Shown here: positions 1-51,960 of the stretch, in pieces
Layout of the letters: the number at the start of each line of letters is the position of its first letter
How positions within the stretch are numbered: position 1 is the first letter of the stretch
Sequence record: ON568341.1
Reading direction: 5' to 3' (one strand)
DNA from: Escherichia phage UE-S1
DNA length: 64,000 nucleotides
Program-made: the position numbers and the translations under genes
Notes under the pieces: generated by a model
What the model was told of the DNA's origin: nothing
Seen by the model: only the letters and a program-made list of their open reading frames with translations
The model's database searches: none

Positions 1-3000
1 GATTATCATTGTAAGTCAAACCACTGAATCCACAACCAACGGCATCATGAATTTTATCATCACTGATATCTTTATAAAGTTTCAATCGGTTGGCTAATGT
101 GTTATACTGAACATATTGTCTAAGGTCAGTAAACATTTCATTATGTGTTGATTCTTTATAAACGCGTTCTAACGTAGCTGTAAATTTATCAGTAGCTTCT
201 AAATCATCTGCATGTTCTTTATACCACTTGTTTACACCATGTGCAGTTCCAAGTGTTACATCCAATTCTGGATAGTAGATTTGCATTAGATAAGCATTAA
301 CAAGGTCAAACGAATTTTCATTATATTCTGGGAAAGAATATATGTAACGTTGTAATTCATAGTTATTAACAGAGTCTTTTTCATTGGTTTGATATTTTTT
401 ATTAACATTAATTAAATCATTAATGTTTGCCAAATCTTCATTTGGTTTACATTGAATGTTATCATAATGCATAATAATATCAATTTCTTGGAATCTTCTA
501 TGTGGGGAAATAAAATCACTAGGTAGTGCACCAACTTGTTCCCATTTTTTAGTAACTTCATTATATTGTGCGTACTCGTAATCCCAAATATCTTTTTCAG
601 TTTTAATCCAAGAACCATCAACGAAAATATACCCATTAGGATCTAAATCGTTACAAAGACCTTTTATTAAATCATCATCAGATGTTTTTTGTTCTATTTG
701 TGAACGAATTTTAGTTCTATAAGGTTTAACCTCTTCAAAGTACTCAACAATTTGATTAATCAAATTGTCATTTGAGTAATTTTGTACTAAAGATTGTTCC
801 AAACCAACAATATAGATATAGGAAGTTTTAAATACCCAATCTACAACACTTTGTTCAACGTGAACATATTTTACCATATCAAAAACAATTTCACTTTGAT
901 GTAAATCGAAAGAATGTTTGAGTAATGCTAGTGCTTTACGAACATTTATTTCACGATTACTAAGGGAACCGTTTTCATTATGAATACTATAGTCTGCATA
1001 AATCAAATCATTAAGTTCAATAGTGCTATGTTGACGACCAATAGCTTTCCAATAAATTGAATCACGCGATTGTGCTTTGATATACAACGTCCAAATATTT
1101 TCACTATCCGTAACTCTGATGATATCACCAACTTGATAATTTTTAGTATTTGCTTCTTCTAAACTAGTCTCTTGAATATAAGCTGTTTTGCTATCATACC
1201 CAACGTCATACCAATCAGCATACGACCAGTACTGAGTCATATCTAATGATGTTCCAAGTGATTCGACATAATCACTTTGCTTAATCATTTTATGTTGTCC
1301 CTCACCTTTATTTTCTAAAGTTATAGTAACAACATTTCCTGTATTGGCTGGGCTGTTCATTAACTGAATATATCCATTTTCATCAAAGTGAATGAAATAA
1401 ACTGCACTAGTGGATAAAGGATTTGGTAGATAACCACTGGAACTTAAAATAACAGCGTCATTTTCTTTAAATTTATCCTGCTCGACTGCAATCACTAATT
1501 CATTATTATAAGACAATACACGGAAAGAAACCTCATTAGGGTTAACTTCTGTTGTTTTGACATTAAACACATCTTCCATAACAACACTATTAGTGGTTAT
1601 GTTTTGTGATCTATAATAATTATTTGCACTTTCTACAAAGTTTCTTCGTGCATCAATTACATTCTGGAACCAGGTTTTATTGGAGCCTATACCATTATCA
1701 ACATCTGGATATAATAAATTTATCACCGAACCTGACTTGGTTGTTTCTTGTCCTATTAGTGAGTTCCACATTGAATCCCAAATTAATGGATTAAAGTTAT
1801 AGCTTTCACCCTCTTTACACAGTTGGTATTGATCATGTTTAACAACTTCAGTACTGTCCATATAGTAAGAAATAGTCAAAACACTAGTGTCATCATTGAC
1901 TTTAAACTGCATATTACTAAGGATAAAGGAGTTTTCATTAATTGGTGCAAACCAAGGAATGTTTAACTGTGATGGATCTTTAATAATACGTGCAATATCA
2001 GTACATGATTTAGTTCTGGTATGTAAAGGTGGTACATAAATTGTATCACGTACCCAGAAATAGTATTTTGTCACATAACTGTCAGTTGAGCTATCATATT
2101 CCAAAAATGTACTATAATTATCTTCAAGTGCAGTTCCGCTTGGAAGATACATATTATTATTTTTGTTTTTCTTAGCAACATCTTTACAGTACTTATCCCA
2201 GTTATATGGTTCTACTGGCGAGCATACCCACTCCAATACATCAATAGTGCTATGTGGCAACAAACGCCCCCAGTTGTATCGTTTGTATTCATTAGTAGCG
2301 TCAATATCAACATTACCATCTGCGTCATAAATGGCACGAGTATAATCCAAATAAAATGCAGTGCTTGTGTTCCACCATACTTGACCTACTTTATCTGCAC
2401 CCCAAGCTTGGACTAATTCACCATTACTATTATATTGTGCAGGGTCAATTGGTGAAGTATATGTCACGTTTTGCATAGCTGCACCTGGAATAACACCATT
2501 AATTGGGTCATAAACGTTTAGATATAATGCAGTAATATTTGTACGTTCATCATACGTTGTTGGTCGTTCAAATAGAGTGCTCTGTGGTGCTTTAAAGCTA
2601 TATTTTTTGTCAATATATTCTTGACGTTTATCAGCACTAGTGAATCGTGACACATAACGATACAAACGTGGACGAGTAGCCGGATCAGTAAATTCAATAT
2701 TAATTGAAGTATCAAATGGAACTACCATAACTTTAGGATCTTCGCCAGCAGTGTAATATTGACTTTCTACAGTTAAGGTATCTGGCATAAAATTCGTTTC
2801 ATCAACAAAATAATAATAATCGCCATCTTCAAGTGGGATTTTATCAGTCAATGTTACTTTACAGAATTGTTCAGCGTAAATATCGGTATTTTCGATTGGT
2901 GTTATAGAAACCATTTGCACATTAGTGTCAACTAATTCAAAAATGTTCCACAAACCATTACCATCTTTAAACATCCAAACTGATTCAGGATTTTCACCTT

Positions 3001-6000
3001 TACCATTAACATAAGAAATGCGGTCGTTATATGCAGTACTGAAATCTTTAGTAGTGTAAGATACTTCATCTAAGGTAACTGGACCAATATCAGGAAGTTG
3101 AATGTGTTCACTTCTCCCACTACGCATTGGAAATGAAAATTTTCCATTCGGGCGTGTAATCCAACGTGGGTCTTTACCTTGATCACCAAAATATACAACA
3201 TTATTACCAGTACCATTTGAAGTTGCATTTTCATCAAAAGACACCATTTGTGGTTGTTGTTTAAATTGGTCATTAATTAATTTAAATTGAAGATTTTTCT
3301 TACCATCAATATTACCATATGTACCAATTTTAAATGCCCATTCTTGTAATGCTTTATACTCATCAGTGTCATATGATTTAGAAACACGCAAAACACGTTC
3401 TAAAACTTGGTTAGTACCTTTATCATGAATAAATCCTTTATAAAAATCAACACGACTAACATCGCTACTAATCATACGTTGTAGATAATCACGGGATTGA
3501 TAGCCAATTAAATGACTAGACAATTCTTGTAATTGTACATCGCTTACTGGACTTTCATTATCATAGTAATGTTGGAAATCAGTTACTAATGTTTCAAATG
3601 AAGGAATTGTACCAGATTCTAATATAATAAAACCAGGTGCTTGTAATCTTCCAGTCCATGAACCAGTAATATAACCGTACATTTTGATTAGTTCCTGAAT
3701 AGAACCATATGTTGGTTGATAGATGTAATCACCAAAAATAGTTTTATCATCAAATATAACCGCATGTTCATATGAACACAAACTTAAACGAAGTAATGCA
3801 ATACGTTTATTAGAATCTAATGTTCTAACAGTGAAAATATTACCAATACGAGAAGTTTCGATTTCATACTGACGAATACCTTGGTTATTATCGTCAAGTA
3901 GTGACCATACTCCACCATTATTTTGTGTAATAGACTGAACTGAACCAAAATCTGAACCAAATTTTGCATTTGCTGCACTTGGTGTACAAGATATAAATTC
4001 ACCAGTTATAAGAGAATTCTGACTCCACATCACAAAATCTTTAGCAATAGTGTTCCAATCTTGTTGAACGCCGCCATCATTTACATCTTCGAAGATCCAT
4101 CCATGTTCTTTAAGATACTCCCCATAACCACAAATAAAAGTATAGACTTCTTGGTAACTGTTAAGAACTGTTCCATATTCAATAGAAGCCTCAGACTTCC
4201 ATTCATTGTAATGGACAACATTACGGTTTTCTAATTTAAGAGTTACTTTTCGACCATTTTTCACTGGGAGTTTATATTTAAATTTAGCCCCAACCAAGTC
4301 ATATCCATCTATTTGATATGCACTACCATTCCAGGTAATTTTGATAGCACTCATCTGTTCATCACGAATATTATTTGAACGTACAAGTCCAATTGTTTGG
4401 TTTTCTTGTGAAATCAACCCAAATGATTTAGCATTGAATGTTAGTTGGTCTGCTTTAGTAAATCCTCCAATTTTATGTCCTACATTTACATTAGAAGAAC
4501 GAACAACATCACCATATTTTGTAGTAATGTTTTTATTTTGATACATCAAATAATCACTAACGAACATTTGATACCCAATTGTTCTTGTGTTATTTTCACC
4601 ATGAACAGTGGTTTTTTTATCAAAATTGATACGATTACGGGTATCCCCATAAAGAAATTGTTCACCACCAGTGAATATTTCTTTTAAATTATCATTTCGG
4701 GTGTCCCAAAAATAGTTTGCGAATTGTGCTGGTTTAGCTTTATACAATAGCATCATTTGGTCATATGCAAATAATGTGGTATTCATGTAAGTAAATTCCA
4801 TGTCACCCATATCACCATATGCCCAAGGTTCGGCTCTATGATTTAAAGAACCAGATACTAAACCTAAAATCTCAGGGGCAATATACTCAACAACACAAAT
4901 ATCCACTCCAGAGGATGTTTTATTTCCAGTTTTTGTAATTTTAAATGGTTGTACACCAAATCTTCTATATTTGTCATACTGACCACGGCGGTCACCAGAT
5001 AAAATTGTACCAGTACTACTATCCCCGATAGTATCATTAATATTCCACAGACCACTAGGAACTAAATCACCTTGTTCATCAGTGACAAGTGCTTCATATA
5101 CATATACAACATCACCATCACGTTCACCAACTTGAACAGCAGTTGGTTCATATTCTTGATTCCACCAAGTAGGACGTTGTGTAAATCCAAACATTTCCCA
5201 TGGATGTGTTGCTGGACGATATGTACCATATTGGTCAGTATAGATTGCACGCCACGAACCACGAGCAGGAATTTCAGTACTTTTACCATTGACCATATAA
5301 TAGGTTCCAGTGTAGTTCCATGTTCTCCAGTTACTGGGATCATAATCATGTGTACTATTACTAATACCATTGGATGCTGTAAAGTTAATATAACCACGCA
5401 ATAAAAGTGTTTGTTTCTCTTCCGCACTATATTCAGTTTTTGTAAAATATGGTGTAGGGAAAAGGTCATCACTATTCAATACTGGAACATAATCAACATC
5501 TTTGAATTTATTATCAATACTATTAAAAATTCTATTTTCTAACTCATAAACAACATCATCCATTTTATCAACACCATTAATTACACGGTATGCTTTTGAA
5601 ATAATACCAGTATGACTAATGTTATAAAAGCTTGGTTTACTACCAGCAGTTAGAAATGTAGCTTTCTCAGGAACATATGCTTGTAAAATACCCAAAAACT
5701 GTGGTGTTGGTGGTATAAATGCACGAACAAGTCCAGATGTGCTTCCTACATTATCATAATAGAACGGGAATGAGCTGTCGCGTCCCATATTGATAGTAGT
5801 TAAAATAGAATCAACAATATTTGCTGCACTATTTTGTAAAAAGTTAGATGGATTTTCATTATACATACGAAGCATTTGAGTATTAAATTTATTAATGAAT
5901 CGGAAATATTCAGATTGCATAAACATAGTTGCTTCAAATAAATCAATATCTTCATTTGCGGTATGAGCCATCAATGGAAGCATAGAAGCTTCATTTTGAA

Positions 6001-7996
6001 TAATTTTAGTTCCTACTCCATTATTCACTAATCCCTTAGCTAAACGTTCTTCATAATCGTTGAAGTCATCAGCATAACCACTAGTGATATTCTGTTGAAT
6101 AATATCCTGAAAATGTAGAGTATAGTCTCCTTGATTAATATATATAATATTGGAGTTATATGGGTTATTTTGTAAGTTAATCGGAACTTCATATGCACCT
6201 AATTCTTTATCAGGTGTTACGGTTCTACTATAAGTTCTAATTTGAATAACAGAATCATCATCTAAATCTACCGAACTATCAAGTGTGATGCTTTGTACTT
6301 GGCCTTTTGATACATTCTTTGTATATTTTGATACATTAACACCATCGACATTAACTTCAATAATATCAGAATCATTATCTAAAACTTTTTGAGCTAATTC
6401 AAACGTATGATCATATTTTAAAATCTGAATACCATCACCACTAATCTGATGCCAGTCCAAATAAGTTTCACGTTCTGCTTTATAGTACTGATATGTTCTA
6501 TCAACTTCAATAACATATGCATACATACCATCAACAGGTTCTTTGAACACTTCCATGTCATATACAGTACTGAATACTCGATACATGTCAGTGCGTTGGA
6601 CCTGTGGAGTTTGTTTTACATATTGTTTAGAGTATTCGTTTGAACGAACCCAATCAGTTTTTAGATTCATTTTATTATTTTCATCAATAATGTTATAATA
6701 ATACAATCCACCAATTTCAACTTCAACACCAAGATGATCATATGTATAACGTTGTGATTGCAAAAAGTTTTCATAGGTGTAATAGTTATAATCACCAAGT
6801 TCAATGTTATACCCATATACACTATCAGTAGCGTAATTATAATTTATTTTAAAACCAAATAATTGTGAACCTTTAAAGTTACTGGATGGGTATGTTGTAC
6901 TATTATCTAGTTTAATCCCATTGCGATCATAAAGTTGGAATTTTGGGAAGACGTTAACACTAGGTTTAGACTGTGCACGAACCCACAAATTACCATTCCA
7001 AAACATAGAACTATTACCATATTCATTACCTTTGGTAATTAAAACAACATCTCCATCCTGTGGTTCACCACTTGGACGAGATTCTGATTCTTCATCGGGG
7101 TCTAGTGCTAAGCCATAAACACGTGTACCATCTTGCATTTTTTTAACATATACTTTATAAATCCTATTGTTTTCACCATCGTTACCAATACTAGTGAATA
7201 GAATACGCATACCATCTTGTGGAATAATACCATCAATACGAATACCACTATTGACATCTTTTTGGATAATATCTTCAGGTTTAATATTATCAGAAAAAAG
7301 TTCAACTGTACCACGGAATTTCGTACCGTAGTTAATTAGCTCAATGTTTTTATTATATTCAATAATTGGTGCACGAGCACGAATAAAACGAGCATCTTGC
7401 ATTAATTCTTCGGTCAAGATTGAACCATCTTCCAGTGTCTCACCTAAAGTATACCAAAAGTTTTGTAATGACCAAGTATTACCATTAAGTGCACCACGTT
7501 CCATGACAATGTAGTCAGGAGTAGTAATATTATAAGAGTTTTTTGTATCCCAAAGATATGAGCTAAAATTATTCATTTTATTTGGGTTAATTGCAGGTGT
7601 CCATGCGTAAAACTTACCGTTAAATAAGCGACTTTCATTATCGGTTAGTGCTCCATAATGACTCATGTACCCAACCAGATCATCATAAAATTGAATTGAA
7701 CGAATAGTCGAATCATCATTTTTAGAGACGTAAGCAGTGGACAACTGATATAGTTGTCGAGCAACAGTACTTTCGTGTAAAAAGATATTACCAGCAGCGG
7801 CTGGAGAACCCATATCACCAATATAACCGTCAACTAATTCGTTTTCAGCCGGATTAAACCATTGTTGAATAACATCATCACTGACTTTCTGAATATCTTC
7901 TAAGCCTTGCATCCACTCAGGCAATCTTTTAATAAAAAGCTTTTTCTGTACTGCTTCAGCCATCTGTGTAGGTTGAAACTTAAAATTATTAGTCAT
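1..7996 (-). CDS. Giant virion structural protein (baseplate wedge / tail-fibre-like), 3' end truncated by window edge
   Basis: Minus-strand frame read by eye from ATG at 7996-7994 (GGAG 8 nt upstream) to position 1 with no stop noticed, more than 2,660 codons. Missing from the ORF track only because its stop lies outside the window. Sits at the distal end of the baseplate module. Confidence 0.6.
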   Translation of the reverse strand, partial: MTNNFKFQPTQMAEAVQKKLFIKRLPEWMQGLEDIQKVSDDVIQQWFNPAENELVDGYIGDMGSPAAAGNIFLHESTVARQLYQLSTAYVSKNDDSTIRSIQFYDDLVGYMSHYGALTDNESRLFNGKFYAWTPAINPNKMNNFSSYLWDTKNSYNITTPDYIVMERGALNGNTWSLQNFWYTLGETLEDGSILTEELMQDARFIRARAPIIEYNKNIELINYGTKFRGTVELFSDNIKPEDIIQKDVNSGIRIDGIIPQDGMRILFTSIGNDGENNRIYKVYVKKMQDGTRVYGLALDPDEESESRPSGEPQDGDVVLITKGNEYGNSSMFWNGNLWVRAQSKPSVNVFPKFQLYDRNGIKLDNSTTYPSSNFKGSQLFGFKINYNYATDSVYGYNIELGDYNYYTYENFLQSQRYTYDHLGVEVEIGGLYYYNIIDENNKMNLKTDWVRSNEYSKQYVKQTPQVQRTDMYRVFSTVYDMEVFKEPVDGMYAYVIEVDRTYQYYKAERETYLDWHQISGDGIQILKYDHTFELAQKVLDNDSDIIEVNVDGVNVSKYTKNVSKGQVQSITLDSSVDLDDDSVIQIRTYSRTVTPDKELGAYEVPINLQNNPYNSNIIYINQGDYTLHFQDIIQQNITSGYADDFNDYEERLAKGLVNNGVGTKIIQNEASMLPLMAHTANEDIDLFEATMFMQSEYFRFINKFNTQMLRMYNENPSNFLQNSAANIVDSILTTINMGRDSSFPFYYDNVGSTSGLVRAFIPPTPQFLGILQAYVPEKATFLTAGSKPSFYNISHTGIISKAYRVINGVDKMDDVVYELENRIFNSIDNKFKDVDYVPVLNSDDLFPTPYFTKTEYSAEEKQTLLLRGYINFTASNGISNSTHDYDPSNWRTWNYTGTYYMVNGKSTEIPARGSWRAIYTDQYGTYRPATHPWEMFGFTQRPTWWNQEYEPTAVQVGERDGDVVYVYEALVTDEQGDLVPSGLWNINDTIGDSSTGTILSGDRRGQYDKYRRFGVQPFKITKTGNKTSSGVDICVVEYIAPEILGLVSGSLNHRAEPWAYGDMGDMEFTYMNTTLFAYDQMMLLYKAKPAQFANYFWDTRNDNLKEIFTGGEQFLYGDTRNRINFDKKTTVHGENNTRTIGYQMFVSDYLMYQNKNITTKYGDVVRSSNVNVGHKIGGFTKADQLTFNAKSFGLISQENQTIGLVRSNNIRDEQMSAIKITWNGSAYQIDGYDLVGAKFKYKLPVKNGRKVTLKLENRNVVHYNEWKSEASIEYGTVLNSYQEVYTFICGYGEYLKEHGWIFEDVNDGGVQQDWNTIAKDFVMWSQNSLITGEFISCTPSAANAKFGSDFGSVQSITQNNGGVWSLLDDNNQGIRQYEIETSRIGNIFTVRTLDSNKRIALLRLSLCSYEHAVIFDDKTIFGDYIYQPTYGSIQELIKMYGYITGSWTGRLQAPGFIILESGTIPSFETLVTDFQHYYDNESPVSDVQLQELSSHLIGYQSRDYLQRMISSDVSRVDFYKGFIHDKGTNQVLERVLRVSKSYDTDEYKALQEWAFKIGTYGNIDGKKNLQFKLINDQFKQQPQMVSFDENATSNGTGNNVVYFGDQGKDPRWITRPNGKFSFPMRSGRSEHIQLPDIGPVTLDEVSYTTKDFSTAYNDRISYVNGKGENPESVWMFKDGNGLWNIFELVDTNVQMVSITPIENTDIYAEQFCKVTLTDKIPLEDGDYYYFVDETNFMPDTLTVESQYYTAGEDPKVMVVPFDTSINIEFTDPATRPRLYRYVSRFTSADKRQEYIDKKYSFKAPQSTLFERPTTYDERTNITALYLNVYDPINGVIPGAAMQNVTYTSPIDPAQYNSNGELVQAWGADKVGQVWWNTSTAFYLDYTRAIYDADGNVDIDATNEYKRYNWGRLLPHSTIDVLEWVCSPVEPYNWDKYCKDVAKKNKNNNMYLPSGTALEDNYSTFLEYDSSTDSYVTKYYFWVRDTIYVPPLHTRTKSCTDIARIIKDPSQLNIPWFAPINENSFILSNMQFKVNDDTSVLTISYYMDSTEVVKHDQYQLCKEGESYNFNPLIWDSMWNSLIGQETTKSGSVINLLYPDVDNGIGSNKTWFQNVIDARRNFVESANNYYRSQNITTNSVVMEDVFNVKTTEVNPNEVSFRVLSYNNELVIAVEQDKFKENDAVILSSSGYLPNPLSTSAVYFIHFDENGYIQLMNSPANTGNVVTITLENKGEGQHKMIKQSDYVESLGTSLDMTQYWSYADWYDVGYDSKTAYIQETSLEEANTKNYQVGDIIRVTDSENIWTLYIKAQSRDSIYWKAIGRQHSTIELNDLIYADYSIHNENGSLSNREINVRKALALLKHSFDLHQSEIVFDMVKYVHVEQSVVDWVFKTSYIYIVGLEQSLVQNYSNDNLINQIVEYFEEVKPYRTKIRSQIEQKTSDDDLIKGLCNDLDPNGYIFVDGSWIKTEKDIWDYEYAQYNEVTKKWEQVGALPSDFISPHRRFQEIDIIMHYDNIQCKPNEDLANINDLINVNKKYQTNEKDSVNNYELQRYIYSFPEYNENSFDLVNAYLMQIYYPELDVTLGTAHGVNKWYKEHADDLEATDKFTATLERVYKESTHNEMFTDLRQYVQYNTLANRLKLYKDISDDKIHDAVGCGFSGLTYNDN

Positions 7997-8045
7997 TTTC
8001 TGGACTCCATATAATTCGTTCATTCATTTATTTTATTTATTAGAT

Positions 8046-8069
8046 AAAAAAGGCGTTCCGAAGAACGCC
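8046..8069 (-). terminator. Rho-independent terminator after gp6-like gene
   Basis: Hairpin GGCGTTC-cgaa-GAACGCC, followed on the minus strand by a T-run. Confidence 0.55.
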
Positions 8070-8078
8070 AGTGTAATA

Positions 8079-18559: not shown

Positions 18560-18593
18560 CTTTTGATTCTCCATCATAAGGGAACATTTGATG

Positions 18594-18601
18594 TATTTAT
18601 A
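18594..18601 (-). promoter_or_regulatory. T4-type late promoter TATAAATA
   Basis: Plus strand tatttata, about 35 nt upstream of the refined start at 18559. Confidence 0.5.
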
Positions 18602-18604
18602 CGT

Positions 18605-18633
18605 GGGACAAAACACTTTTTGGTGCTATAATA
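18605..18633 (+). promoter_or_regulatory. Early sigma70-like promoter (GGGACA-N17-TGcTATAAT)
   Basis: GGGACA at 18605-18610 and extended -10 TGCTATAAT at 18625-18633, upstream of gp55. Confidence 0.5.
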
Positions 18634-18689
18634 ACATTGATGGTATAAGGATTGTATCTATTGGATTTAAACATGGAGAGTTGAATATA

Positions 18690-19529
18690 ATGACAAATAG
18701 ACCAAAGCGTAAAAAGTATCTCAATAATGCTGATTTACTTCGTGAAATACAAAAAAGTAAGATTTCATATTGCTGGTTATTAGACAAATCATATAGTATG
18801 TATGATTATATCGTTTTTCATGAGTCAGAAATTACTGCTGAGTTACTTGAAAAAGCAAAAGCAGCACGAATTAAACGACTTAACAATGAAATGCTTGATA
18901 GTATTCGTGCAAAGGAAAATATGAGTGCTAAAAAAGCGAAAGAATATGCAGAAGAAAATAATCTAGTTATTACTGATGTTCCAATTGATGAAGTAGTTAT
19001 TCGTGTTATTACAGATGAACACATCCCACCAGATACTAGAGTTAATTTTGAACCTTTCAAACATTATATCGTAGATAATGAAGGTATTCTTTATGAAGTA
19101 TGTCGCTCTCATTGGAAAGGTGACCTTGAATCTGGGGAATTTAGTACTGTTCATGGTAAAATAACAAATGAACTAGGGAAAATGTTCATTAAACTAGCAG
19201 AGGAAATCTCACATAAATCTAACTATAGAAACTATACATACTTAGATGAAATGATGGGTGATGCAAGAATACAATTAGTTAAAAATGCACTTCTCTTTAA
19301 AGAGAGTATTCTTTATAAAAAAGACAAACCCGCTGTACAACTAAATCCTTTCTCTTACTATACATCATTCGTAAACAATAGTTTTCGTTCAATTTTGAAT
19401 AGTGAGAAAAATGTTCGAAATATACGTGATGATTTACTTGAAATGCATGGCTTTACACCATCACATACACGTCAAATTGAAATTGAATTGAACATGATTG
19501 AAAGGAAAAATGAAGATGGCACTGTTTGA
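18690..19529 (+). CDS. gp55: Late-transcription sigma factor gp55
   Basis: N-terminus RPKRKKYLNNADLLREI parallels T4 gp55 KPKYNYVNNKELLQAI. C-terminal blocks LGKMFIKLAEEISHKSNYRNYT and NPFSYYTSFVNNSFRSIL parallel T4 [22 protein letters not shown] and NPHAYITQACFNAFVQRI. Start refined to ATG 18690. About 90 aa longer than T4 gp55. Confidence 0.75.
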   Translation: MTNRPKRKKYLNNADLLREIQKSKISYCWLLDKSYSMYDYIVFHESEITAELLEKAKAARIKRLNNEMLDSIRAKENMSAKKAKEYAEENNLVITDVPIDEVVIRVITDEHIPPDTRVNFEPFKHYIVDNEGILYEVCRSHWKGDLESGEFSTVHGKITNELGKMFIKLAEEISHKSNYRNYTYLDEMMGDARIQLVKNALLFKESILYKKDKPAVQLNPFSYYTSFVNNSFRSILNSEKNVRNIRDDLLEMHGFTPSHTRQIEIELNMIERKNEDGTV

Positions 19530-27459: not shown

Positions 27460-29199
27460 ATGAGTTGGAAACGACATATGACAGTGGGAAGGTCAAAGCT
27501 ATCGACTATCCCAAATCAGTCCAATAATAGCAATAAATCAACAGGAACAAAAACCAATTTTGCTTCCTATCTTCCAGTTGTATATAATGGATTGGCAAAC
27601 CGTACTGAACGTTATAGTCAGTATGAGCAAATGGACCAAGACCCTGAAATTAGAACTGCATTGAATATCATTGCTGACTTTTGTACTCAAAGTACTGAAG
27701 ATTATGGTTTACCATATAAAATAAAATACAAAGATGATATTGGGGATACTGAAGTAACAACGATTGAAGATCGTTTAGATGCATGGACTGAACAAAATGA
27801 TTTTAAAACACGAATGTATGAGATTGTACGTGGTCTTTTGAAATATGGGGACCAGTTTTTTATCCGAGATCCAGAAACATTTGATTGGTATTGGGTGAGT
27901 CCAAAAAACGTCGAACAAGTATTTGTTAATGAAGCAACTGGGAAAACACCAGTAATTTATTACATACGTGATGTATCATTAAACTTAAAAGATAAAGTTT
28001 ATAGTAATCTACAAGTTGGATTCGATAAAACCGCTTATCCTGGTGCTATTCCTACAACAATGGGTGGTGGTGGTTCTGTCGCTGCTGGCGGTGCATCTGG
28101 ATTCACTAGTCAAGGTAATACTGCTGACCCTTTCAGCACTAATGGTCAATTAGATGTTATTCCTGTTGGTGCAGAACACGTAATCCATTTGACGCTAAAT
28201 ACTGGACAAGATGGAGTATGGCCTTTTGGTACTAGTATACTTGAGGATGTATTCAAAGTTTATAAACAAAAAGAACTTCTAGAAGATAGTATCATAATTT
28301 ATCGTGTACAACGTGCTCCAGAACGTCGTGTTTTTAAAATCGATGTTGGTGATATGCAAGCACATCAGGCAATGGCTTATGTGGAAAGATTTAAAAATGA
28401 AATTCATCAGCGTAGAATACCTTCAAACAAAGGTGGAAGTACTTCTTTAATGGATGCAGCATATAATCCTTTAAGTATATTAGAAGATTACTTTTTCCCA
28501 CAAACTTCTGAAGGTCGTGGTTCGGATGTTCAAACTTTACCAGGTGGTGATAACTTAGGGCAAATTGATGACTTACGCTACTTCAATAATAAATTGATAC
28601 GTGGTCTTCAAATACCAGCTTCCTATCTACCACAAGGTCCAGATGATGGTGGTGTTTCATTATTTGGTGATGGTGCAACACAAGCTATGGCAAGTGAATT
28701 ACGATTCAATAATCAATGTATGCGTTATCAGCGTTTAGTTGCGAAACATTTTGATGCTGAATTCAAAAGATTTATGGTAAAAAATGGATATAATATTAGT
28801 ACTTCATCATTTGAAGTCATTATGAATCCACCAATTAACTTAGCTTCTTATCGTAAAGCTGAATTGGATGCTAAATTAATTAATACATATCTACCTCTTA
28901 ATGATTTACCTTATATGGCTAAACAAACAATTCTTGAGAAAATGGGCTTTTCTAAAGCAGATATTGTTAAGAATGAACAAATGTGGTTACAAGAGAATCC
29001 ACAAGATGGTTCTCAACCTTCTAGTGGTGAAGAAGATTCTGCTGGATTACAGTCTGTTGGTATTGATGCACCAAATGACCCAGGTATGGATCTTGGTATT
29101 GACGGTGATGGTAATTTAGAAAGTGCTGATTCCGAATATCAAGAACAACAAAGTGGAAGTGATGGTTTCAATCCTAATAATTTAGGCAATTCTTTTTAA
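27460..29199 (+). CDS. gp20: Portal vertex protein gp20
   Basis: IIYRVQRAPERRVFKIDVGDM parallels T4 gp20 [21 protein letters not shown]. 579 aa. Heads the portal-protease-scaffold-capsid order. Confidence 0.9.
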   Translation: MSWKRHMTVGRSKLSTIPNQSNNSNKSTGTKTNFASYLPVVYNGLANRTERYSQYEQMDQDPEIRTALNIIADFCTQSTEDYGLPYKIKYKDDIGDTEVTTIEDRLDAWTEQNDFKTRMYEIVRGLLKYGDQFFIRDPETFDWYWVSPKNVEQVFVNEATGKTPVIYYIRDVSLNLKDKVYSNLQVGFDKTAYPGAIPTTMGGGGSVAAGGASGFTSQGNTADPFSTNGQLDVIPVGAEHVIHLTLNTGQDGVWPFGTSILEDVFKVYKQKELLEDSIIIYRVQRAPERRVFKIDVGDMQAHQAMAYVERFKNEIHQRRIPSNKGGSTSLMDAAYNPLSILEDYFFPQTSEGRGSDVQTLPGGDNLGQIDDLRYFNNKLIRGLQIPASYLPQGPDDGGVSLFGDGATQAMASELRFNNQCMRYQRLVAKHFDAEFKRFMVKNGYNISTSSFEVIMNPPINLASYRKAELDAKLINTYLPLNDLPYMAKQTILEKMGFSKADIVKNEQMWLQENPQDGSQPSSGEEDSAGLQSVGIDAPNDPGMDLGIDGDGNLESADSEYQEQQSGSDGFNPNNLGNSF

Positions 29200-29272
29200 A
29201 CATAAATAACAGTGTATAAGAATGAGGGTTTATATTAGCCCTCATTTATAATGCATATTTCAAGGAGATTGA

Positions 29273-29500
29273 ATGTTAAAGGACATCTTTGAATCTAGCA
29301 GTGATTCAATGTACGACCCTGAAGATGATCAGAACGTATATAAAATTACTGACTCCAGAAAACCAAAACTAACATTACAAGTATTAAATAACTTAAGAAA
29401 GTATCGTGAATTTAAAGCACATGAGGAACAACGCCGCAAAAATGTGGTTGCTGTTGTTTATGCATCTACCCCAACAGGTGATGATTCTGGATTAATGTAA
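29273..29500 (+). CDS. Small head-morphogenesis-cluster protein (positional analogue of T4 prohead core genes)
   Basis: 75-aa ORF between portal and prohead protease genes. Assignment by position only. Confidence 0.4.
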   Translation: MLKDIFESSSDSMYDPEDDQNVYKITDSRKPKLTLQVLNNLRKYREFKAHEEQRRKNVVAVVYASTPTGDDSGLM

Positions 29501-29550
29501 ATCAAAAATCGCACTTTTTTAAGCTTTTAAAAAAGGTGATTTTATTCAGT

Positions 29551-29604
29551 ACTAAATAATATCATACTTTATACGAATATAATATATCTATGGAGGATAT
29601 AATG
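29551..29604 (+). repeat. Conserved late-gene leader element, copy A
   Basis: actaaataatatcatactttatacgaatataatatatctatggaggatataATG is near-identical to the leader of the major capsid gene at 32297-32352. Confidence 0.6.
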
Positions 29605-30432
29605 GCGAATTTAAAACTACTACAAGAAGCAATTGCGGCGTTTGCAAATGGTGAACAAGATATTGCTGATAAAAAAATGCGTAAGTATTTTGTTGAGCAA
29701 GCACAAGAAATTAACAAGAAGCTAGAAGAAAGCATGGAAGATGAAGACGAGGAAGTTGAAGTCGAAGATGAAGAACAGCTTGACGAAGATTTTGATGTGC
29801 AACCAGATGCTGGTCTAAATGCTGAAATCGAATACACACTTGGTGAAGAAGATGAAAGTGCAGAAGATGAAGTTGAGTTTTCTGCTGATGCTGATGGTGA
29901 CGGTGAAGATGATGTTGATGTGGAAGTGAAGGCAGATGCTGATGTTCCTTCTGAAGATCAATGGGAATCAATTCAGGATGCTTTCCGTGGTTTACAACAA
30001 ATGTTTGATGAAATTGGTGATGGCGAAGTTGACCTAGATTCCGATGAAGAAGTTGAAGATAGTGAAGAAGAAGTCGGCGTTGACGGTGAAGACGAATTTG
30101 CTGACGTTGAATTCGGTGATGAAAAAATTGGTGAATCCTTCAAACTAGAAAAAGTTGCACCTGTCGACAAGAAAGAAAAAGCTGGTACTCATACTAAATC
30201 CCCAGTAGCACCTGAAGCAAAATCCCCAGTAGCAGGAGCAGAACCAGTTAAATTTGCAAAGAAAACTGATCAAGCACCACTAGTAGACCTAGATGATAAA
30301 TCTGTTCTACCAAAAGATAACCTTGATCTTGGTAAAAATGCTCGCGGTGAAATGAAAGATGTAAAAGCACCAAAAACTACTGCATCAAATTCTAAATCAC
30401 CACTAAGTAAAGCACAACCTAAAGTAAAATAA
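29602..30432 (+). CDS. Highly acidic prohead core / scaffold-like protein
   Basis: Start refined to ATG 29602 after a GGAGGA RBS. Extreme Asp/Glu-rich central region and Lys/Pro-rich tail. Lies between portal and protease genes. Confidence 0.6.
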   Translation: MANLKLLQEAIAAFANGEQDIADKKMRKYFVEQAQEINKKLEESMEDEDEEVEVEDEEQLDEDFDVQPDAGLNAEIEYTLGEEDESAEDEVEFSADADGDGEDDVDVEVKADADVPSEDQWESIQDAFRGLQQMFDEIGDGEVDLDSDEEVEDSEEEVGVDGEDEFADVEFGDEKIGESFKLEKVAPVDKKEKAGTHTKSPVAPEAKSPVAGAEPVKFAKKTDQAPLVDLDDKSVLPKDNLDLGKNARGEMKDVKAPKTTASNSKSPLSKAQPKVK

Positions 30433-30452
30433 ATAAATGAAAGGAGATCATT

Positions 30453-31076
30453 ATGAGTAGTATGATACGTGAATGGTCTTCATTCAATGATTCTAAAGTT
30501 GTTTTGGAACATCGTGATAATGGGTTTGGTGGGCGTGATTGTTACCTTCGTGGTATTGCAATTCAAGCAGACCAACGCAATTTGAACGAGAGAATTTACC
30601 CTTTATCTGAAATTACAAGAGCAGTAAATAATATGAATCAGCGTTTAGCTAAAGGTGAAAGTATTCTTGTTGAATGTGACCATCCAGAAACACTGACTAT
30701 TAATTTAGACCGAGTAGCAGCAATGATTACTAAGGTTTGGATGGAAGGTGCAAATGGTATGGCTGAAATCAAATTACTTGATACTGCACATGGTCAGAAT
30801 ATCCGTAAAATGCTAGAGGCTGGTGTAAAACTTGGTGTAAGTTCTCGCGGTTCCGGTAACGTAGATTATAATGGAATAGTTTCTGATTTTGAAATTATCA
30901 CTATTGATATTGTTGCTCAACCTAGTGCTCCAGAAGCATACCCAACAGCGGTATTTGAATCTCTGATGAGTAAGTACGGATCACCTTGTAATGGTTCTAA
31001 AAAAATCACTGAATCTAAAAAAGTAAATAATTTAGATTCTGAAATATACGATTTTTTCAAGAAATTAAAAGGTTAA
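30453..31076 (+). CDS. gp21: Prohead core protease gp21
   Basis: LGVSSRGSGNV parallels T4 gp21 PGVSSRGLGSL. ERIYPL parallels KRLYPK. Confidence 0.85.
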   Translation: MSSMIREWSSFNDSKVVLEHRDNGFGGRDCYLRGIAIQADQRNLNERIYPLSEITRAVNNMNQRLAKGESILVECDHPETLTINLDRVAAMITKVWMEGANGMAEIKLLDTAHGQNIRKMLEAGVKLGVSSRGSGNVDYNGIVSDFEIITIDIVAQPSAPEAYPTAVFESLMSKYGSPCNGSKKITESKKVNNLDSEIYDFFKKLKG

Positions 31077-31087
31077 CATTTTAAAAA

Positions 31088-31120
31088 TATAAATATCTGT
31101 ATGTTGAAGTACAGATATTT
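31088..31120 (+). promoter_or_regulatory. Late promoter TATAAATA plus 11-bp leader hairpin upstream of the scaffold gene
   Basis: TATAAATA at 31088-31095. Perfect inverted repeat AAATATCTGTA / TACAGATATTT at 31091-31101 and 31110-31120. Confidence 0.5.
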
Positions 31121-31142
31121 CAGTACTTAAAGGAGAGAACGA

Positions 31143-32258
31143 ATGTCTAAATTAGAAAAGCTTCTAAAAGAATCATCTCTTTCTGATGAGGCAAAACAGC
31201 TAATTCAGGAAGCATGGAATGAAGAAAAGAATACACTAGCCGCAGAGATGCGTGAAGAAATGAAAGGCCGTTATCAGCAAGATTTGGCTGAATTAACCGA
31301 AGGGTTGAACACTATGGTTACTCAAGTCATTGCTGAAGAAATGGGTGCTGTATATGAAGAGAAAAAACGTCTTGTTGAAGACCGTGTAACTCTACGTAAA
31401 ACACTAAGCAATTTCTCTGCGTTTTCAAATTCTGTTTTGGCTGAAGAAGTTAAACAAATGCGTAAAGAGCGTAAGCATCTGCATGAATGCATGGGTAAAT
31501 TCGTTAATTTTTCTAACGGTATCCTAGCAGAAGAACTAAAAGAATTCCACACAGAAAAACGTCAACTGGTTGAAGCTCGTGTAAAATTACTTGCAGAAGG
31601 TTCACGTCAAATTGCTGAAGCTCGTAATAACTTCATCAAACGTACATCTGAAAGTGCTGCTAAATATATTGCAGAGACAACACAGAAGAATCTATATGCG
31701 TTAAAACAAGATCTAGTGGAAGCGAAACAAAATATGTTTGGTCGTAAAATCTTTGAAGCATTTGCTCAAGAATTTAATGTCAAACAATTCAATGAAAATT
31801 CATTGCTACGTTCACTAACTGAAACAATTAAATCTAAAGAAGATGAAATTGATCAAGTTAAGCAAGAACTACATGAAACTGTTAATGCGGTTAAAGCTGC
31901 TAAAACTAAACTACGTATTATGGAAGATGCACAAGCCCGTAATGCGATTATGTCAGAACTAGTAAAACCACTAACTGCACAGCAAAAACAAATTATGGAA
32001 TCCCTTCTAGCAACTTCACCTACTGAAAAGCTTAAAGAAGATTTCAGTAAGTACCATAAGTCAGTACTTAACGGTACTAAAGTAAATGAATCTGCTACCA
32101 CTCGTCAAGCAGTTCAGTCTTCCGCTAAGAAAACTCTTGCAGAAGGTAAAGTGATCACTGGCAACCGTCAGGCTATTGTTGAAAGCGAAGAAATGACCGC
32201 TGACGATATGGCATTCCTAAAAGAACTCGATGTTCTTTCGGGTATCAATAAAAAATAA
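31143..32258 (+). CDS. gp22: Prohead scaffold protein gp22
   Basis: 371-aa charged, coiled-coil-type sequence between protease and major capsid genes. Confidence 0.6.
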   Translation: MSKLEKLLKESSLSDEAKQLIQEAWNEEKNTLAAEMREEMKGRYQQDLAELTEGLNTMVTQVIAEEMGAVYEEKKRLVEDRVTLRKTLSNFSAFSNSVLAEEVKQMRKERKHLHECMGKFVNFSNGILAEELKEFHTEKRQLVEARVKLLAEGSRQIAEARNNFIKRTSESAAKYIAETTQKNLYALKQDLVEAKQNMFGRKIFEAFAQEFNVKQFNENSLLRSLTETIKSKEDEIDQVKQELHETVNAVKAAKTKLRIMEDAQARNAIMSELVKPLTAQQKQIMESLLATSPTEKLKEDFSKYHKSVLNGTKVNESATTRQAVQSSAKKTLAEGKVITGNRQAIVESEEMTADDMAFLKELDVLSGINKK

Positions 32259-32296
32259 ACATTTTAAAGCATTTTAATAATCAATTTTTTCAGTTC

Positions 32297-32352
32297 TATA
32301 AATAATATCATACTGAAAAACGAATATAACATCTTTAAGGAGATATATAATG
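32297..32352 (+). repeat. Conserved late-gene leader element, copy B, including TATAAATA
   Basis: ctataaataatatcatactgaaaaacgaatataacatctttaaggagatatataATG. TATAAATA at 32297-32304. Confidence 0.6.
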
Positions 32353-33525
32353 TCACAACTACTAAATGAATCCAAATGGGTAGCAGTAAAAGAGAAACTA
32401 GTTGAAGGTCTACAGGGTACTCGTAAGTCTGTAATGGAAACTGTTCTTGATAACCATCGTAAAGTTATGCTAACTGAATCCGCAACTTCTGGTGCAACTA
32501 CCGCTGGTAATATCGCTACACTAAACAAAGTGATTCTACCAATTATGCGTCGTGTAATGCCAACTGTTATTGCTAACGAAATTATCGGTGTTCAGCCTAT
32601 GACTGGCCCAGTCGGTCAAATTCACACCCTACGTGTACAATATGCTGATAATGCACCTGGTGTTATCGCTGGTGAAGAAATGCTTTCTCCATACAAAATC
32701 GCTAAATCCTACTCTGGTGAACTAAATTCTGATAACAGCAATCCTCAAGCTGCTCCTACTAGCCAACTAGAAGGTACTATGGGTCGTCGCGTTAACATCC
32801 GTATTCTACGTGAAACAGTTGAAGCGAAATCTCGTCGTCTATCTGCACGTTGGACTGTTGAATCTGCACAAGATGCTCAATCCCAACATGGTGTTGACGT
32901 TGAAGCAGAACTAATGGCTGCAATCGCTCAAGAAGTTACCGTAGAAATCGACCAAGAGCTACTAAGCCGTCTACGTGCACTACCTGGTGCTGCTGCTGTA
33001 ACTTATGACCAATCTAAAGTTACTGGTGTTGCAACCTTCGTTGGTGATGAGCACGCTGCTCTAGCAACTCTAATTAACCGTCAAGCAAACGAAGTTGCTC
33101 GTCGTACTAAGCGTGGTGCTGCAAACTGGGCTGTTGTTTCCCCAACTGCACTAACCATTCTACAATCTGCTACTACTTCTAGCTTTGCACGTACCACTGA
33201 AGGTACTTTCGAAGCACCAACTAACGTTAAGTTTGTAGGTACTCTAAATAGCACTATGCGTATTTTTGTTGATACTTATGCAAGTGATTCAGAAGATATT
33301 CTAATTGGTTATAAAGGTAATGCAGAAACTGATGCTGGTGTGTTCTATTGCCCATACATCCCACTAATGGCATCCGGTACTGTAATGGACCCTAACACTG
33401 GTGAATTGGTCACAACCTTCCTCACTCGTTATGGTTACGTACAACTCACTGACTCAACCAGTAGCTTGGGTAATGCTGCGGATTACTACAGCAAAATCGC
33501 TATCAAAAACGTTACTTTCATGTAA
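32350..33525 (+). CDS. gp23: Major capsid protein gp23
   Basis: IIGVQPMTGPVGQIHTLRVQY parallels T4 ICGVQPMNSPTGQVFALRAVY. VEAKSRRLSARWTVESAQD parallels IEAKSRQLKAAYSIELAQD. Only 391 aa against 521 in T4. Confidence 0.9.
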   Translation: MSQLLNESKWVAVKEKLVEGLQGTRKSVMETVLDNHRKVMLTESATSGATTAGNIATLNKVILPIMRRVMPTVIANEIIGVQPMTGPVGQIHTLRVQYADNAPGVIAGEEMLSPYKIAKSYSGELNSDNSNPQAAPTSQLEGTMGRRVNIRILRETVEAKSRRLSARWTVESAQDAQSQHGVDVEAELMAAIAQEVTVEIDQELLSRLRALPGAAAVTYDQSKVTGVATFVGDEHAALATLINRQANEVARRTKRGAANWAVVSPTALTILQSATTSSFARTTEGTFEAPTNVKFVGTLNSTMRIFVDTYASDSEDILIGYKGNAETDAGVFYCPYIPLMASGTVMDPNTGELVTTFLTRYGYVQLTDSTSSLGNAADYYSKIAIKNVTFM

Positions 33526-44974: not shown

Positions 44975-45574
44975 TTATAGTTGAACTGGAAGAGCAGCAC
45001 GTACTTTAATAGCTACAGCAGTAGATGCACCTGCATCACCAACACCATCAGTTCCTTGACTTACGAAAGTTTTAGTACGAAAAACTTTAGCTTGTGCAAT
45101 AGATTTAGCTAGGTCAACAGTTGGATCAACTGGAGCAGGACATGCAGAACCTGGACGAACTTCTTGTTTATTAAATACGTCTTGACGTTCACAGATGAAA
45201 GTCAATGCAACAGAGTTAGCACCACCTTTAACATCAGTACCGCTAGTACCAAATGCAACTACGTTTGGGTTAGCATTTTTAAAATCTTCAGGAATAACAA
45301 CTTCTGCATCAAGAGCAAGTAGTGAAGTCGTTACAAGAACAGCACGTTGCTGTAGTAGTTGAGTAACCATGAATAGGTTATATTGTGCATTGCTTAGTGC
45401 AGTTTGATATGCATCAGCTTGAGCATCAGAACCATCGGACACAACTTTAGTAGTACCGATTTCAACATCAGTTGGTAGGTCGATTACGATGGTTACAAAA
45501 CCGTTGTTGCCACCCCACCATTCACGTGCAACACCAGACATACCATAGTTACGGTTAAAAGAATTAAGACTCAT
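44975..45574 (-). CDS. Ala/Val/Thr-rich structural-type protein, paralogue A
   Basis: 199 aa. QQRAVLVTTS and ERQDVFNKQEVRP blocks. Tandem with paralogue B. Confidence 0.7.
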   Translation of the reverse strand: MSLNSFNRNYGMSGVAREWWGGNNGFVTIVIDLPTDVEIGTTKVVSDGSDAQADAYQTALSNAQYNLFMVTQLLQQRAVLVTTSLLALDAEVVIPEDFKNANPNVVAFGTSGTDVKGGANSVALTFICERQDVFNKQEVRPGSACPAPVDPTVDLAKSIAQAKVFRTKTFVSQGTDGVGDAGASTAVAIKVRAALPVQL

Positions 45575-45699
45575 GAAAATCTCCTTGTCGAATTTTGTGC
45601 AGGTTCATCCTGCTTAAAGTTATTTATCAAAAAATATTCCTAGCATTTAAATTTACTGGAATAATTAATGAATTTCTATGATATTATTTATCAAAAATG

Positions 45700-51960
<6,261 letters not shown>

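Follow-up and report, generated by a model that had tools for sequence, protein, structure and literature searches.

The window, that is, the whole stretch of 64,000 nt that was analyzed, belongs to an Asteriusvirus jumbo phage (121Q/PBECO4-like, Rak2-like) with a genomic G+C content of 34%. On its plus strand, the gene g600 (29602..30432; phrog_15696 match) encodes an acidic virion structural protein and is syntenic with the prohead-core gene 68 of phage T4, and the gene at 32350..33525 encodes the gp23-like major capsid protein (phrog_138 at 1e-98). The homologues in phage 121Q are gene 600 and gene 603, respectively, and a comparison with the T4 head-gene order 20-67-68-21-22-23 placed the window genes in T4-like synteny. 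The start codon of g600 is the ATG at 29602; an additional ATG located upstream at 29590 is missing from other genera. Since the g600 and capsid proteins are without meaningful similarity, the view that paralogous genes had brought their upstream regions along was rejected. A seeming absence of long open reading frames at positions 1-8078 of the window turned out to be an artefact, as a giant virion gene runs past the window end.

The window also contains a gene of the gp55 family of late sigma factors (18588..19529, plus strand) that was identified by matches to phrog_12791 ('sigma factor for late transcription', 1e-153) and phrog_234 ('late sigma transcription factor', 1e-17). The real start of this gene is probably located near position 18690, and its 121Q homologue, gene 591, is annotated likewise. 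Sequence searches with the deduced protein yielded neither a Pfam nor a PDB match. Homologues of gp33 and gp45 were reported as undetected in the related phage CBB (PMC5259590).

The 63 nt ending at the ATG codons of g600 and of the capsid gene were compared by local alignment, in which 50 columns are identical, 9 are mismatched and 4 contain gaps. The alignment score amounts to 34. Among the 1540 pairings of upstream regions that were scored within the window (mean 8.9, sd 2.2), the second-best pair reached 19, and 5000 trials with one shuffled partner yielded a maximum of 22 (mean 11.1). The similarity includes three blocks, beginning with the 16-mer TAAATAATATCATACT at 29553..29568 and 32299..32314, of which the 64 kb contain no other exact copy. 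The 10-mer ACGAATATAA follows after 4 nt upstream of g600 (29573..29582) and after 5 nt upstream of the capsid gene (32320..32329), and both 10-mers are in turn followed by the pattern ATCT-N-GGAG-N-ATATAATG at 29586-29604 and 32331-32352. An earlier note on this DNA had described near-identical leaders that extend from the late promoter into the 5' untranslated region and the ribosome-binding site, and this description is borne out by the alignment, in which the similarity continues beyond the promoter octamer through the predicted transcription start site. With respect to the copy number, BLAST located the leader at two places per genome, and the search for further copies that the note had proposed, run on the full genome of 121Q, detected these two leaders only, so that a multi-copy element was rejected. 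The 63-nt leader of the capsid gene (32290-32352) is at least 99% identical in 23 phage records, and 22 of the records listed match it at 63 of 63 positions. The pattern ATCT..GGAG..ATG is not a signature peculiar to this pair, as it is present at about 12 gene starts of 121Q.

Both genes are preceded by a T4-type late promoter box. The capsid gene is preceded by the exact octamer TATAAATA (32297..32304, plus strand), whereas the predicted -13 to -6 region of g600 (29551..29558, plus strand) contains ACTAAATA, a CTAAATA variant that differs from TATAAATA at two positions; in this respect a reading of the g600 box as TATAAATA had to be corrected. Other genera carry ATAAATAA at both promoter sites. 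The motif ATAAATA has been predicted as the late promoter of the Rak2-like phages GAP32 and CBB (PMC5259590), and T4 late promoters occupy positions -13 to -6 and tolerate the variants (A/T)ATAAATA and CTAAATA, the latter being the variant of phage Aeh1 (PMC1524935). The shared 16-mers comprise the promoter box, the spacer and a CATAC start context, and we infer that transcription starts at A29564 and A32310. The predicted +1 positions and leader lengths are based on the T4 spacing, since a literature search revealed no mapped transcription start sites of Asteriusvirus; the RNA-seq study of PA5oct provides sigma-70-like motifs only. At other late promoters the sequence following TAAATA is variable. 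A promoter scan detected no sigma-70-type promoter on the plus strand at either leader and 6 sites in the whole region, compared with 11.5 in shuffled sequences. The second block of g600 was considered as a sigma-70 -10 box (TATAAT) and was rejected on account of the missing -35 element and TG extension; the corresponding hexamer is TGTAAT in 121Q and Ecwhy_1 and TTAAAT in A4.

Downstream of the predicted start sites, g600 and the capsid gene would be provided with A/U-rich 5' untranslated regions of 38 nt (29564..29601) and 40 nt (32310..32349), respectively. Neither leader is significantly folded, with minimum free energies of -4.4 kcal/mol (z = -0.47) for g600 and -1.8 kcal/mol (z = +1.11) for the capsid gene. 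The only Rfam match between positions 29000 and 33000, L20_leader at 29145-29257, is located outside both leaders and reached 21.3 bits against a gathering threshold of 58.7 (E = 0.65). The translation-initiation region of g600, ATCTATGGAGGATATAATG (29586..29604), contains the Shine-Dalgarno sequence GGAGG at 29592-29596 and a 5-nt spacer in front of the AUG at 29602, and that of the capsid gene, ATCTTTAAGGAGATATATAATG (32331..32352), contains AAGGAG at 32337-32342 and a 7-nt spacer in front of the AUG at 32350. Both intergenic regions look built for strong expression. Of the assignment of these genes to the most highly expressed late genes in the earlier note, only the part concerning the capsid protein, the abundance of which is documented, can be retained: in CBB virions this protein was represented by 21 peptides (68% coverage) and the g600 homologue by a modest 3 peptides (15.5% coverage) (PMC5259590).

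Hairpins and inverted repeats were detected in the vicinity of both leaders. Between g599 and g600, the upstream portion of the intergenic region is formed by a terminator-like hairpin 3' of g599 (29505..29543, plus strand; -13.8 kcal/mol, z = -5.1) that is followed by UUUUAUU. The stem sequence differs between genera with the complementarity being kept, and the orthologous site in phage Munch is annotated as 'terminator'. The late promoter of the capsid gene is straddled by the inverted repeat TTTTTCAGT (32286-32294) and ACTGAAAAA (32312-32320), with -6.8 kcal/mol and z = -3.35 for the region 32286..32320. This repeat is present in every genus, including CTGT/ACAG and TTGT/ACAA variants; the covariation support is formally weak, with three rows of the alignment misaligned by MAFFT. 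Inverted repeats flanking late promoters are unsupported as a general feature, as stems of at least 7 bp were found at 3 of 38 promoters, one of them being a terminator loop.

A comparison across genera indicated that the shared sequence does not represent a discrete conserved element of 50 nt, as the earlier note had supposed. The intergenic regions are 1-3% and 8-13% diverged, compared with 19-50% at 4-fold synonymous sites. Conservation in all genera was observed for the promoter together with CATAC and for the translation-initiation regions; the latter are nearly invariant although the identity of the g600 protein drops to 39-48%, and the proposal of a conserved translation-initiation region can be upheld to this extent. 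The middle block, on the other hand, is common to Asteriusvirus only. Its capsid-gene copy is invariant in this genus and reads CGAAAAAAC in Munch and L002, whereas the g600 copy varies at about the synonymous rate, with ACGAATATAA in the window, ACGAATGTAA in 121Q, ATGAATGTAA in Ecwhy_1 and AGGAATTAAA in A4. The within-genome alignment scores of the two leaders form a gradient of 34, 32, 30 and 25 in Asteriusvirus and of 17-21 in other genera, with the window representing the extreme. Leaders of the same genome are more similar to each other than cross-paralog pairs from different genomes (p = 0.007 and 0.019), and the leaders of the same gene pair are also alike in the distant relative L014. 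These comparisons point to a co-variation of the leaders of two unrelated genes within lineages, which would have arisen separately in Asteriusvirus and in a distant relative and may result from matched selection or micro-conversion.

The best explanation, which we regard as reasonably probable, is that each copy represents a compact late-gene expression cassette. Host RNA polymerase equipped with the phage sigma factor of the gp55 family would read the T4-type promoter, TATAAATA in the case of the capsid gene and CTAAATA in the case of g600, and transcription would begin approximately 6 nt downstream at the A of the conserved CATAC. The resulting leader of 38-40 nt would be A/U-rich and essentially unstructured and would end with a strong Shine-Dalgarno sequence (GGAGG or AAGGAG) located 5-7 nt before the AUG in the context ATCT..GGAG..ATATA. 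The near-identity would then be the sum of a promoter and start context and a translation-initiation region that are under purifying selection in all Rak2-like genera, along with a spacer for which the best match happens to be found in this lineage. Co-evolution of the two leaders would be responsible for the excess of similarity, either by selection for matched expression or by short gene-conversion events.

Alternatively, the extra similarity could have arisen incidentally when two promoter regions that were already alike and are located 2.7 kb apart underwent gene conversion or ectopic recombination in a highly recombinogenic T4-like phage, with no function beyond promoter and ribosome-binding site. 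This possibility, which we consider rather unlikely, is favored by the lineage-specific score gradient, by the excess of within-genome over cross-paralog similarity and by the tetranucleotide that reads TATC in both copies of the crown group, while in A4 the outgroup state TAAC is retained by the capsid copy and the g600 copy reads TATC. However, no contiguous conversion tract is apparent: the leaders of g600 in the window, 121Q, Ecwhy_1 and A4 are clearly recognizable as orthologues, with single-base exchanges at 3 positions of the 10-mer, the flanking sequences of g600 (TTTATA) and of the capsid gene (TGAAAA) have remained different from each other in every genome, and parsimony attributes the perfect 10-mer of the window partly to a recent G-to-A change. 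A mere chance likeness of two A/T-rich intergenic regions could be invoked with regard to the low G+C content and to the middle block of A4, in which 7 of 10 matches are near the chance level, but the alignment score lies far above those of shuffled sequences and of all other real pairs, and the similarity recurs in L014, so that this reading is effectively refuted and its probability is negligible.

An improbable reading with respect to the middle block assumes a CGAAUA recognition motif for a trans-acting phage factor, for example a regulator or an enhancer of translation, that co-ordinates the synthesis of those virion proteins that are most abundant. Single copies of CGAATA are present in the leader of the capsid gene and, in the window, in that of g600, and the leader of the tail-sheath gene contains two, a tandem that is kept in 121Q, Ecwhy_1, CBB, GAP32 and fENko-Kae01; among 38 predicted late leaders of 121Q, two were found to contain three copies altogether, whereas 0.24 would be expected, and the annotation of this phage includes IF3-like and HPF/RaiA-like genes. 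This enrichment is nevertheless post hoc and is lost when 4096 hexamers are corrected for, the genome as a whole shows no enrichment of CGAATATA (15 observed, 25 in shuffled sequences), close relatives differ freely in the g600 copy and the capsid copy is missing outside Asteriusvirus. The two copies of CGAATA in the tail-sheath leader, which are kept across genera, also count against the best explanation given above, in that the spacer may not be entirely passive. A conserved RNA fold that stabilizes the mRNA or tunes ribosome access is in our estimation very improbable. It would be in line with a weak hairpin predicted for g600 that exposes the Shine-Dalgarno sequence in the loop (-4.4 kcal/mol, local z -2.1) and with a weaker analogue in the capsid leader (-1.8 kcal/mol), but neither the z-scores of the whole leaders nor the Rfam search are in favor of it, and the invariance of the leader sequences leaves this reading without covariation. 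The mRNA-stability element suggested in the earlier note is therefore unlikely to be a structural one, and a structured RNA element was rejected.

The finding is an ordinary T4-type late promoter combined with a leader that is short and unstructured and with a strong site for ribosome binding; it represents no new regulatory element, is of mild evolutionary interest and leaves the current understanding of phage gene expression unchanged. It refines the description of late promoters in Rak2-like phages to ATAAATAA, three bases and CATAC upstream of the genes for the capsid and core proteins, makes a prediction of two transcription start sites and provides a well-delimited and probably very strong late promoter and ribosome-binding site for Asteriusvirus jumbo phages, the practical value of which is modest. 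As a more speculative extension, to which we assign a low probability, the leaders might act as co-evolving 'expression-matching' cassettes, in which selection and micro-conversion fix the ratio of core to capsid protein by means of the same promoter strength, start context and ribosome loading, and in which CGAAUA would be read by a phage translation factor. Should selection for matched expression be demonstrated, the gene pair would illustrate in a simple natural case how cis-elements can control stoichiometry.

The expression cassettes resemble several known systems. In common with the gp55-dependent late promoters of T4 (TATAAATA at -13 to -6) and the ATAAATA motif of Rak2-like phages, they contain the exact octamer (capsid gene) or its CTAAATA variant (g600), lack a -35 element and precede late structural genes, and a sigma factor of the gp55 family is likewise encoded in the window. 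In contrast to T4, where the sequences following TATAAATA differ between g18, g19, g20 and g22 and where g23 is devoid of TATAAATA within 90 nt, the two promoters of the window share 8 further downstream bases, ATATCATACT, including the CATAC start context that is kept across genera. In the T4 genes e, soc, 49 and I-TevI, a late promoter is embedded in a hairpin by which the ribosome-binding site of read-through transcripts is sequestered (PMC3014915). The late promoter of the capsid gene is likewise flanked on both sides by the arms of an inverted repeat of 9 bp, and only read-through transcripts could fold this hairpin, since transcripts from the promoter would be devoid of the 5' arm; the 3' arm (+3 to +11, ending at 32320), however, misses the Shine-Dalgarno sequence and the AUG, which are located 17-30 nt further on, and a predicted fold of 32276-32373 leaves the Shine-Dalgarno sequence outside the helix.

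Cassettes of a terminator and an early promoter, referred to as PeSLs, are repeated in T4-like genomes and serve as substrates for homologous recombination (PMC2839356, PMC4122927). Similar to PeSLs, the leaders are short and near-identical intergenic cassettes, and the g600 region is composed of a terminator hairpin followed by a promoter. PeSLs are characterized by sigma-70 early promoters and many copies in hyperplastic regions with gene shuffling, whereas the present late-type promoter-leaders occur in two copies per genome in front of core head genes, with a strong upstream hairpin in the g600 copy only.

The leader of T7 gene 10, which serves as a strong ribosome-binding site in expression vectors, contains an 'epsilon' enhancer, as reported by Olins and Rangwala (1989). 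It resembles the translation-initiation region of the capsid gene (CTTTAAGAAGGAGATATACATATG in T7), and when CATCTTTAAGGAGATATATAATG of the capsid site is compared with AACTTTAAGAAGGAGATATACATATG of T7, both are found to contain CTTTAAG, followed by GGAGATATA and an A/U spacer, upstream of a gene for a major capsid protein. The promoter type differs, and the capsid leader contains no more than a part (ATCTTTA) of the epsilon nonamer TTAACTTTA; at the RNA level, UUAACUUUA of T7 corresponds to ACAUCUUUA upstream of the capsid gene and to UAUAUCUAU upstream of g600, with CUUUA as the only common part and in the capsid copy only. A strong Shine-Dalgarno sequence of the gene 10 type with an A/U spacer of 5-9 nt is found in both leaders, namely AAGGAG with 7 nt (capsid gene) and GGAGG with 5 nt (g600), and the resemblance of the capsid site to the T7 gene 10 leader is probably convergent.

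Two exact copies of the 16-mer TAAATAATATCATACT were detected in the window, at 29553 upstream of the g600 gene, which encodes a 276-aa acidic virion structural protein (29602-30432; phrog_15696), and at 32299 upstream of the major capsid gene (32350-33525). The 10-mer ACGAATATAA is located 4 or 5 nt downstream of the 16-mer in the two leaders, and the motif ATCT-N-GGAG-N-ATATAATG closes both leader regions. Pairwise alignment of the 63 nt preceding the two start codons yielded 50 identical columns, with a local score of 34, compared with 19 for the runner-up among 1540 upstream-region pairs of the window; 5000 shuffles reached no more than 22. The near-identity of the leaders of the two head genes described in the earlier note is therefore borne out and extends beyond the promoter octamer. 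A gene duplication that dragged the upstream region along was rejected as its origin, since the g600 and capsid proteins are unrelated. Leader identity does stem from gene duplication in the array of tandem RCC1-like paralogs at 117-131 kb of the 121Q genome (positions 17000-31300 of L095, a stretch of that genome), which have near-identical upstream regions (tgtatTAAATAtagtataatgaataaaggaggg..ATG).

Over 29000-33500, the sequence shares 94-95% identity with 121Q, PBECO4, UB and other jumbo coliphages of the genus Asteriusvirus, and the gene assignments were carried over from the annotation of 121Q and from PHROGs. The genes encoding the portal (27460-29199), the 75-aa protein g599 (29273-29500), g600, the prohead protease (30453-31076), the scaffold (31143-32258) and the major capsid protein match the T4 gene order 20-67-68-21-22-23. 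By virtue of this T4-like order, the former label of g600 as a core protein is a reasonable guess, but the family search provided no confirmation and returned no Pfam match for the g600 protein. The window also contains a gene for a gp55-like late sigma factor (18588-19529; phrog_12791, phrog_234). The stretch 1-8078, seemingly devoid of long ORFs, is the 5' part of a giant minus-strand gene (~10 kb), which encodes a virion structural protein and extends past the window end; this stretch is ~89.5% identical to PBECO4, with the best match (up to 90.0%) in ph0011.

For Rak2-like phages, which have a gp55-like sigma factor, a late promoter ATAAATA similar to TATAAATA of T4 has been predicted (PMC5259590). 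The T4 late octamer is located at -13 to -6, and relatives accept A/T at -13 or CTAAATA (PMC1524935). The capsid gene is preceded by an exact TATAAATA at 32297-32304 and g600 by the late promoter box ACTAAATA at 29551-29558. With T4 spacing, transcription would start at A32310 and A29564, each representing the A of a CATAC pentamer, and the predicted leaders would comprise 40 nt (capsid) and 38 nt (g600); a literature search revealed no mapped transcription start sites for this phage group. No sigma-70-type promoter was detected on the plus strand at either leader site. Both leaders are A/U-rich and lack significant structure (g600: -4.4 kcal/mol, z -0.47; capsid: -1.8 kcal/mol, z +1.11) as well as a match to an Rfam family, and they end with a strong Shine-Dalgarno sequence, GGAGG 5 nt ahead of the g600 AUG and AAGGAG 7 nt ahead of the capsid AUG. 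The extended -10 sigma-70-type motif TGTGCTATAAT occurs on the plus strand in four exact copies (23323, 45716, 52038 and 62837) and in eight matches with at most one mismatch, versus 2.7 expected; these sites, located upstream of non-structural genes, are probably early or middle promoters. Another site of this probable early or middle class, GGTGCTATAAT at 18622 (plus strand), closely precedes the late sigma gene.

The leaders were compared among the Asteriusvirus phages 121Q, Ecwhy_1, CMSTMSU and A4, the phages Munch, Yen9-03, CBB and Serratia BF of other genera, and several IMG/VR relatives. In all Rak2-like lineages compared, ATAAATAA-N3-CATAC is kept in both leaders and the initiation regions of g600, ATATCT(T)TTGGAGGATATAATG, and of the capsid gene, ATATCTTTT(A/G)AGGAGAT(T/A)(T)ATAATG, are almost invariant; over the same lineages the identity of the g600 protein drops to 39-48%. 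Relative to the window, Ecwhy_1 and A4 differ by 1.1% and 3.3% in the scaffold-capsid intergenic region and by 8% and 12.9% in the g599-g600 intergenic region, respectively, versus 19-50% at four-fold sites, which places both regions under purifying selection. The middle block of the g600 leader reads ACGAATATAA in the window, ACGAATGTAA in 121Q, ATGAATGTAA in Ecwhy_1 and AGGAATTAAA in A4, and is replaced by unrelated sequence in other genera; in g600 it thus evolves at about the synonymous rate. The capsid copy of the block reads CGAAAAAAC in Munch and in L002, one of the relatives compared. The g600-versus-capsid leader score is 34 in the window, the most extreme pair among the genomes scored, 32 in 121Q, 30 in Ecwhy_1 and CMSTMSU, 25 in A4 and 17-21 in other genera, the last range equalling or slightly exceeding the top unrelated late-gene pairs of the window (16-19). 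The conserved translation-initiation or mRNA-stability element suggested in the earlier note is thus borne out in part: conservation holds for the promoter with its start context and for the initiation region, but not for the middle block, which is lineage-specific and drifting in g600. Judged from these comparisons, the near-identity of the spacers is a lineage-specific trait and not a conserved element.

In a matrix of g600 and capsid leaders from nine genomes, the score was 22.7 within and 19.3 between genomes (permutation p = 0.007; p = 0.019 with one genome per independent lineage). This excess points to either matched selection on both genes or short conversion events. A contiguous conversion tract between the two leaders was not found, and within Asteriusvirus the g600 leaders are orthologs separated by point changes. 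The excess has two sources, Asteriusvirus and, independently, the distant relative L014 (IMGVR_UViG_3300027985_000435; capsid protein 72% identical), in which both leaders contain GTACTAAATAA..GTACAA(A)GA and GGAGAAAAT(T)AATG. This pair-specific likeness involves a sequence other than that of Asteriusvirus and indicates that the two leaders co-evolved there independently.

A trans-acting factor recognising CGAAUA in the shared block is conceivable, if tentatively. CGAATA is also present in two copies in the 121Q tail-sheath leader, ATAAATAAGACTATACGAATATATTTCGAATAAC...TTTTTGGAGGATTTAATATG (262795-262853; positions 12795-12853 of L093, another stretch of that genome), where YATAC has the same promoter distance as in the capsid and g600 leaders. 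The tandem is kept in 121Q, Ecwhy_1, CBB, GAP32 and fENko-Kae01, representing three named genera, with a variant in K64-1. CGAATA occurs in 2 of the 38 predicted late leaders of 121Q, with three copies versus 0.24 expected, but the comparison was made post hoc, and the octamer CGAATATA shows no genome-wide enrichment.

With respect to copy number, BLAST with the capsid leader hit exactly two places in each Asteriusvirus genome and a single place in other genera, and a scan of the assembled whole 121Q genome for further copies matched only the g600 and capsid leaders over full length. TAAATAATATCATAC yielded eight matches in 121Q at up to two mismatches, a few of them ahead of other virion or lysis genes. 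Since the sequence downstream of TAAATA varies among ~50-70 candidate late promoters, the 16-mer is specific to the g600/capsid pair and not a general late promoter consensus; an initiation region of the ATCT..GGAG..ATG style is present at ~12 gene starts. Two more promoter-like sites repeat the first half of the 16-mer, one at 45675-45690 (minus strand; ATAAATAATATCATAg), upstream of a virion structural gene (44975-45574, minus strand) with two tandem ATAAATAA boxes, and one at 50623-50638 (plus strand; ATAAATAATATtATA), upstream of a virion structural gene at 50659.

At the start of the g599-g600 spacer, UUUUAUU follows a strong terminator-like hairpin (29505-29543; -13.8 kcal/mol, z -5.1), so that g600 appears to head a late transcription unit of its own. 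In the Munch annotation the orthologous site is a terminator, and the stem sequence changes between genera with complementarity retained. Upstream of g599, the late promoter ATAAATAA (within 29202-29246) is followed after ~10 nt by an 8-bp G+C-containing stem-loop, AATGAGGG..CCCTCATT (29221-29246), likely the 5' stem-loop of the g599 mRNA; relatives have another, still self-complementary sequence at this site. After TATAAATA, the scaffold leader (31088-31125, upstream of 31143) has the hairpin ATATCTGTA..TACAGATAT; both the promoter and the predicted start site are overlapped by its 5' arm. Relatives conserve this hairpin, and their differences include one compensatory pair and many G-U changes. 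A 9-bp inverted repeat (32286-32294/32312-32320, TTTTTCAGT / ACTGAAAAA; -6.8 kcal/mol, z -3.35) encloses the capsid promoter in its loop and could form a hairpin only in read-through transcripts. The repeat is present in all genera compared, with the variants CTGT/ACAG, TTGT/ACAA and GTAC/GTAC; its formal covariation is weak and not significant, and inverted repeats are no general feature of the late promoters.

Taken together, the shared sequence consists of a promoter, a start-site context, an unstructured leader and a strong ribosome binding site, a well-known arrangement for late proteins made in abundance that is present here in two copies. The capsid initiation site CATCTTTAAGGAGATATATAATG is close in sequence to the T7 gene 10 leader AACTTTAAGAAGGAGATATACATATG, with the T7 'epsilon' nonamer being only partial. 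The promoter within an inverted repeat recalls the architecture of T4 e/soc/49 (PMC3014915); unlike in T4, the 3' arm of the capsid-promoter repeat stops short of the Shine-Dalgarno sequence.
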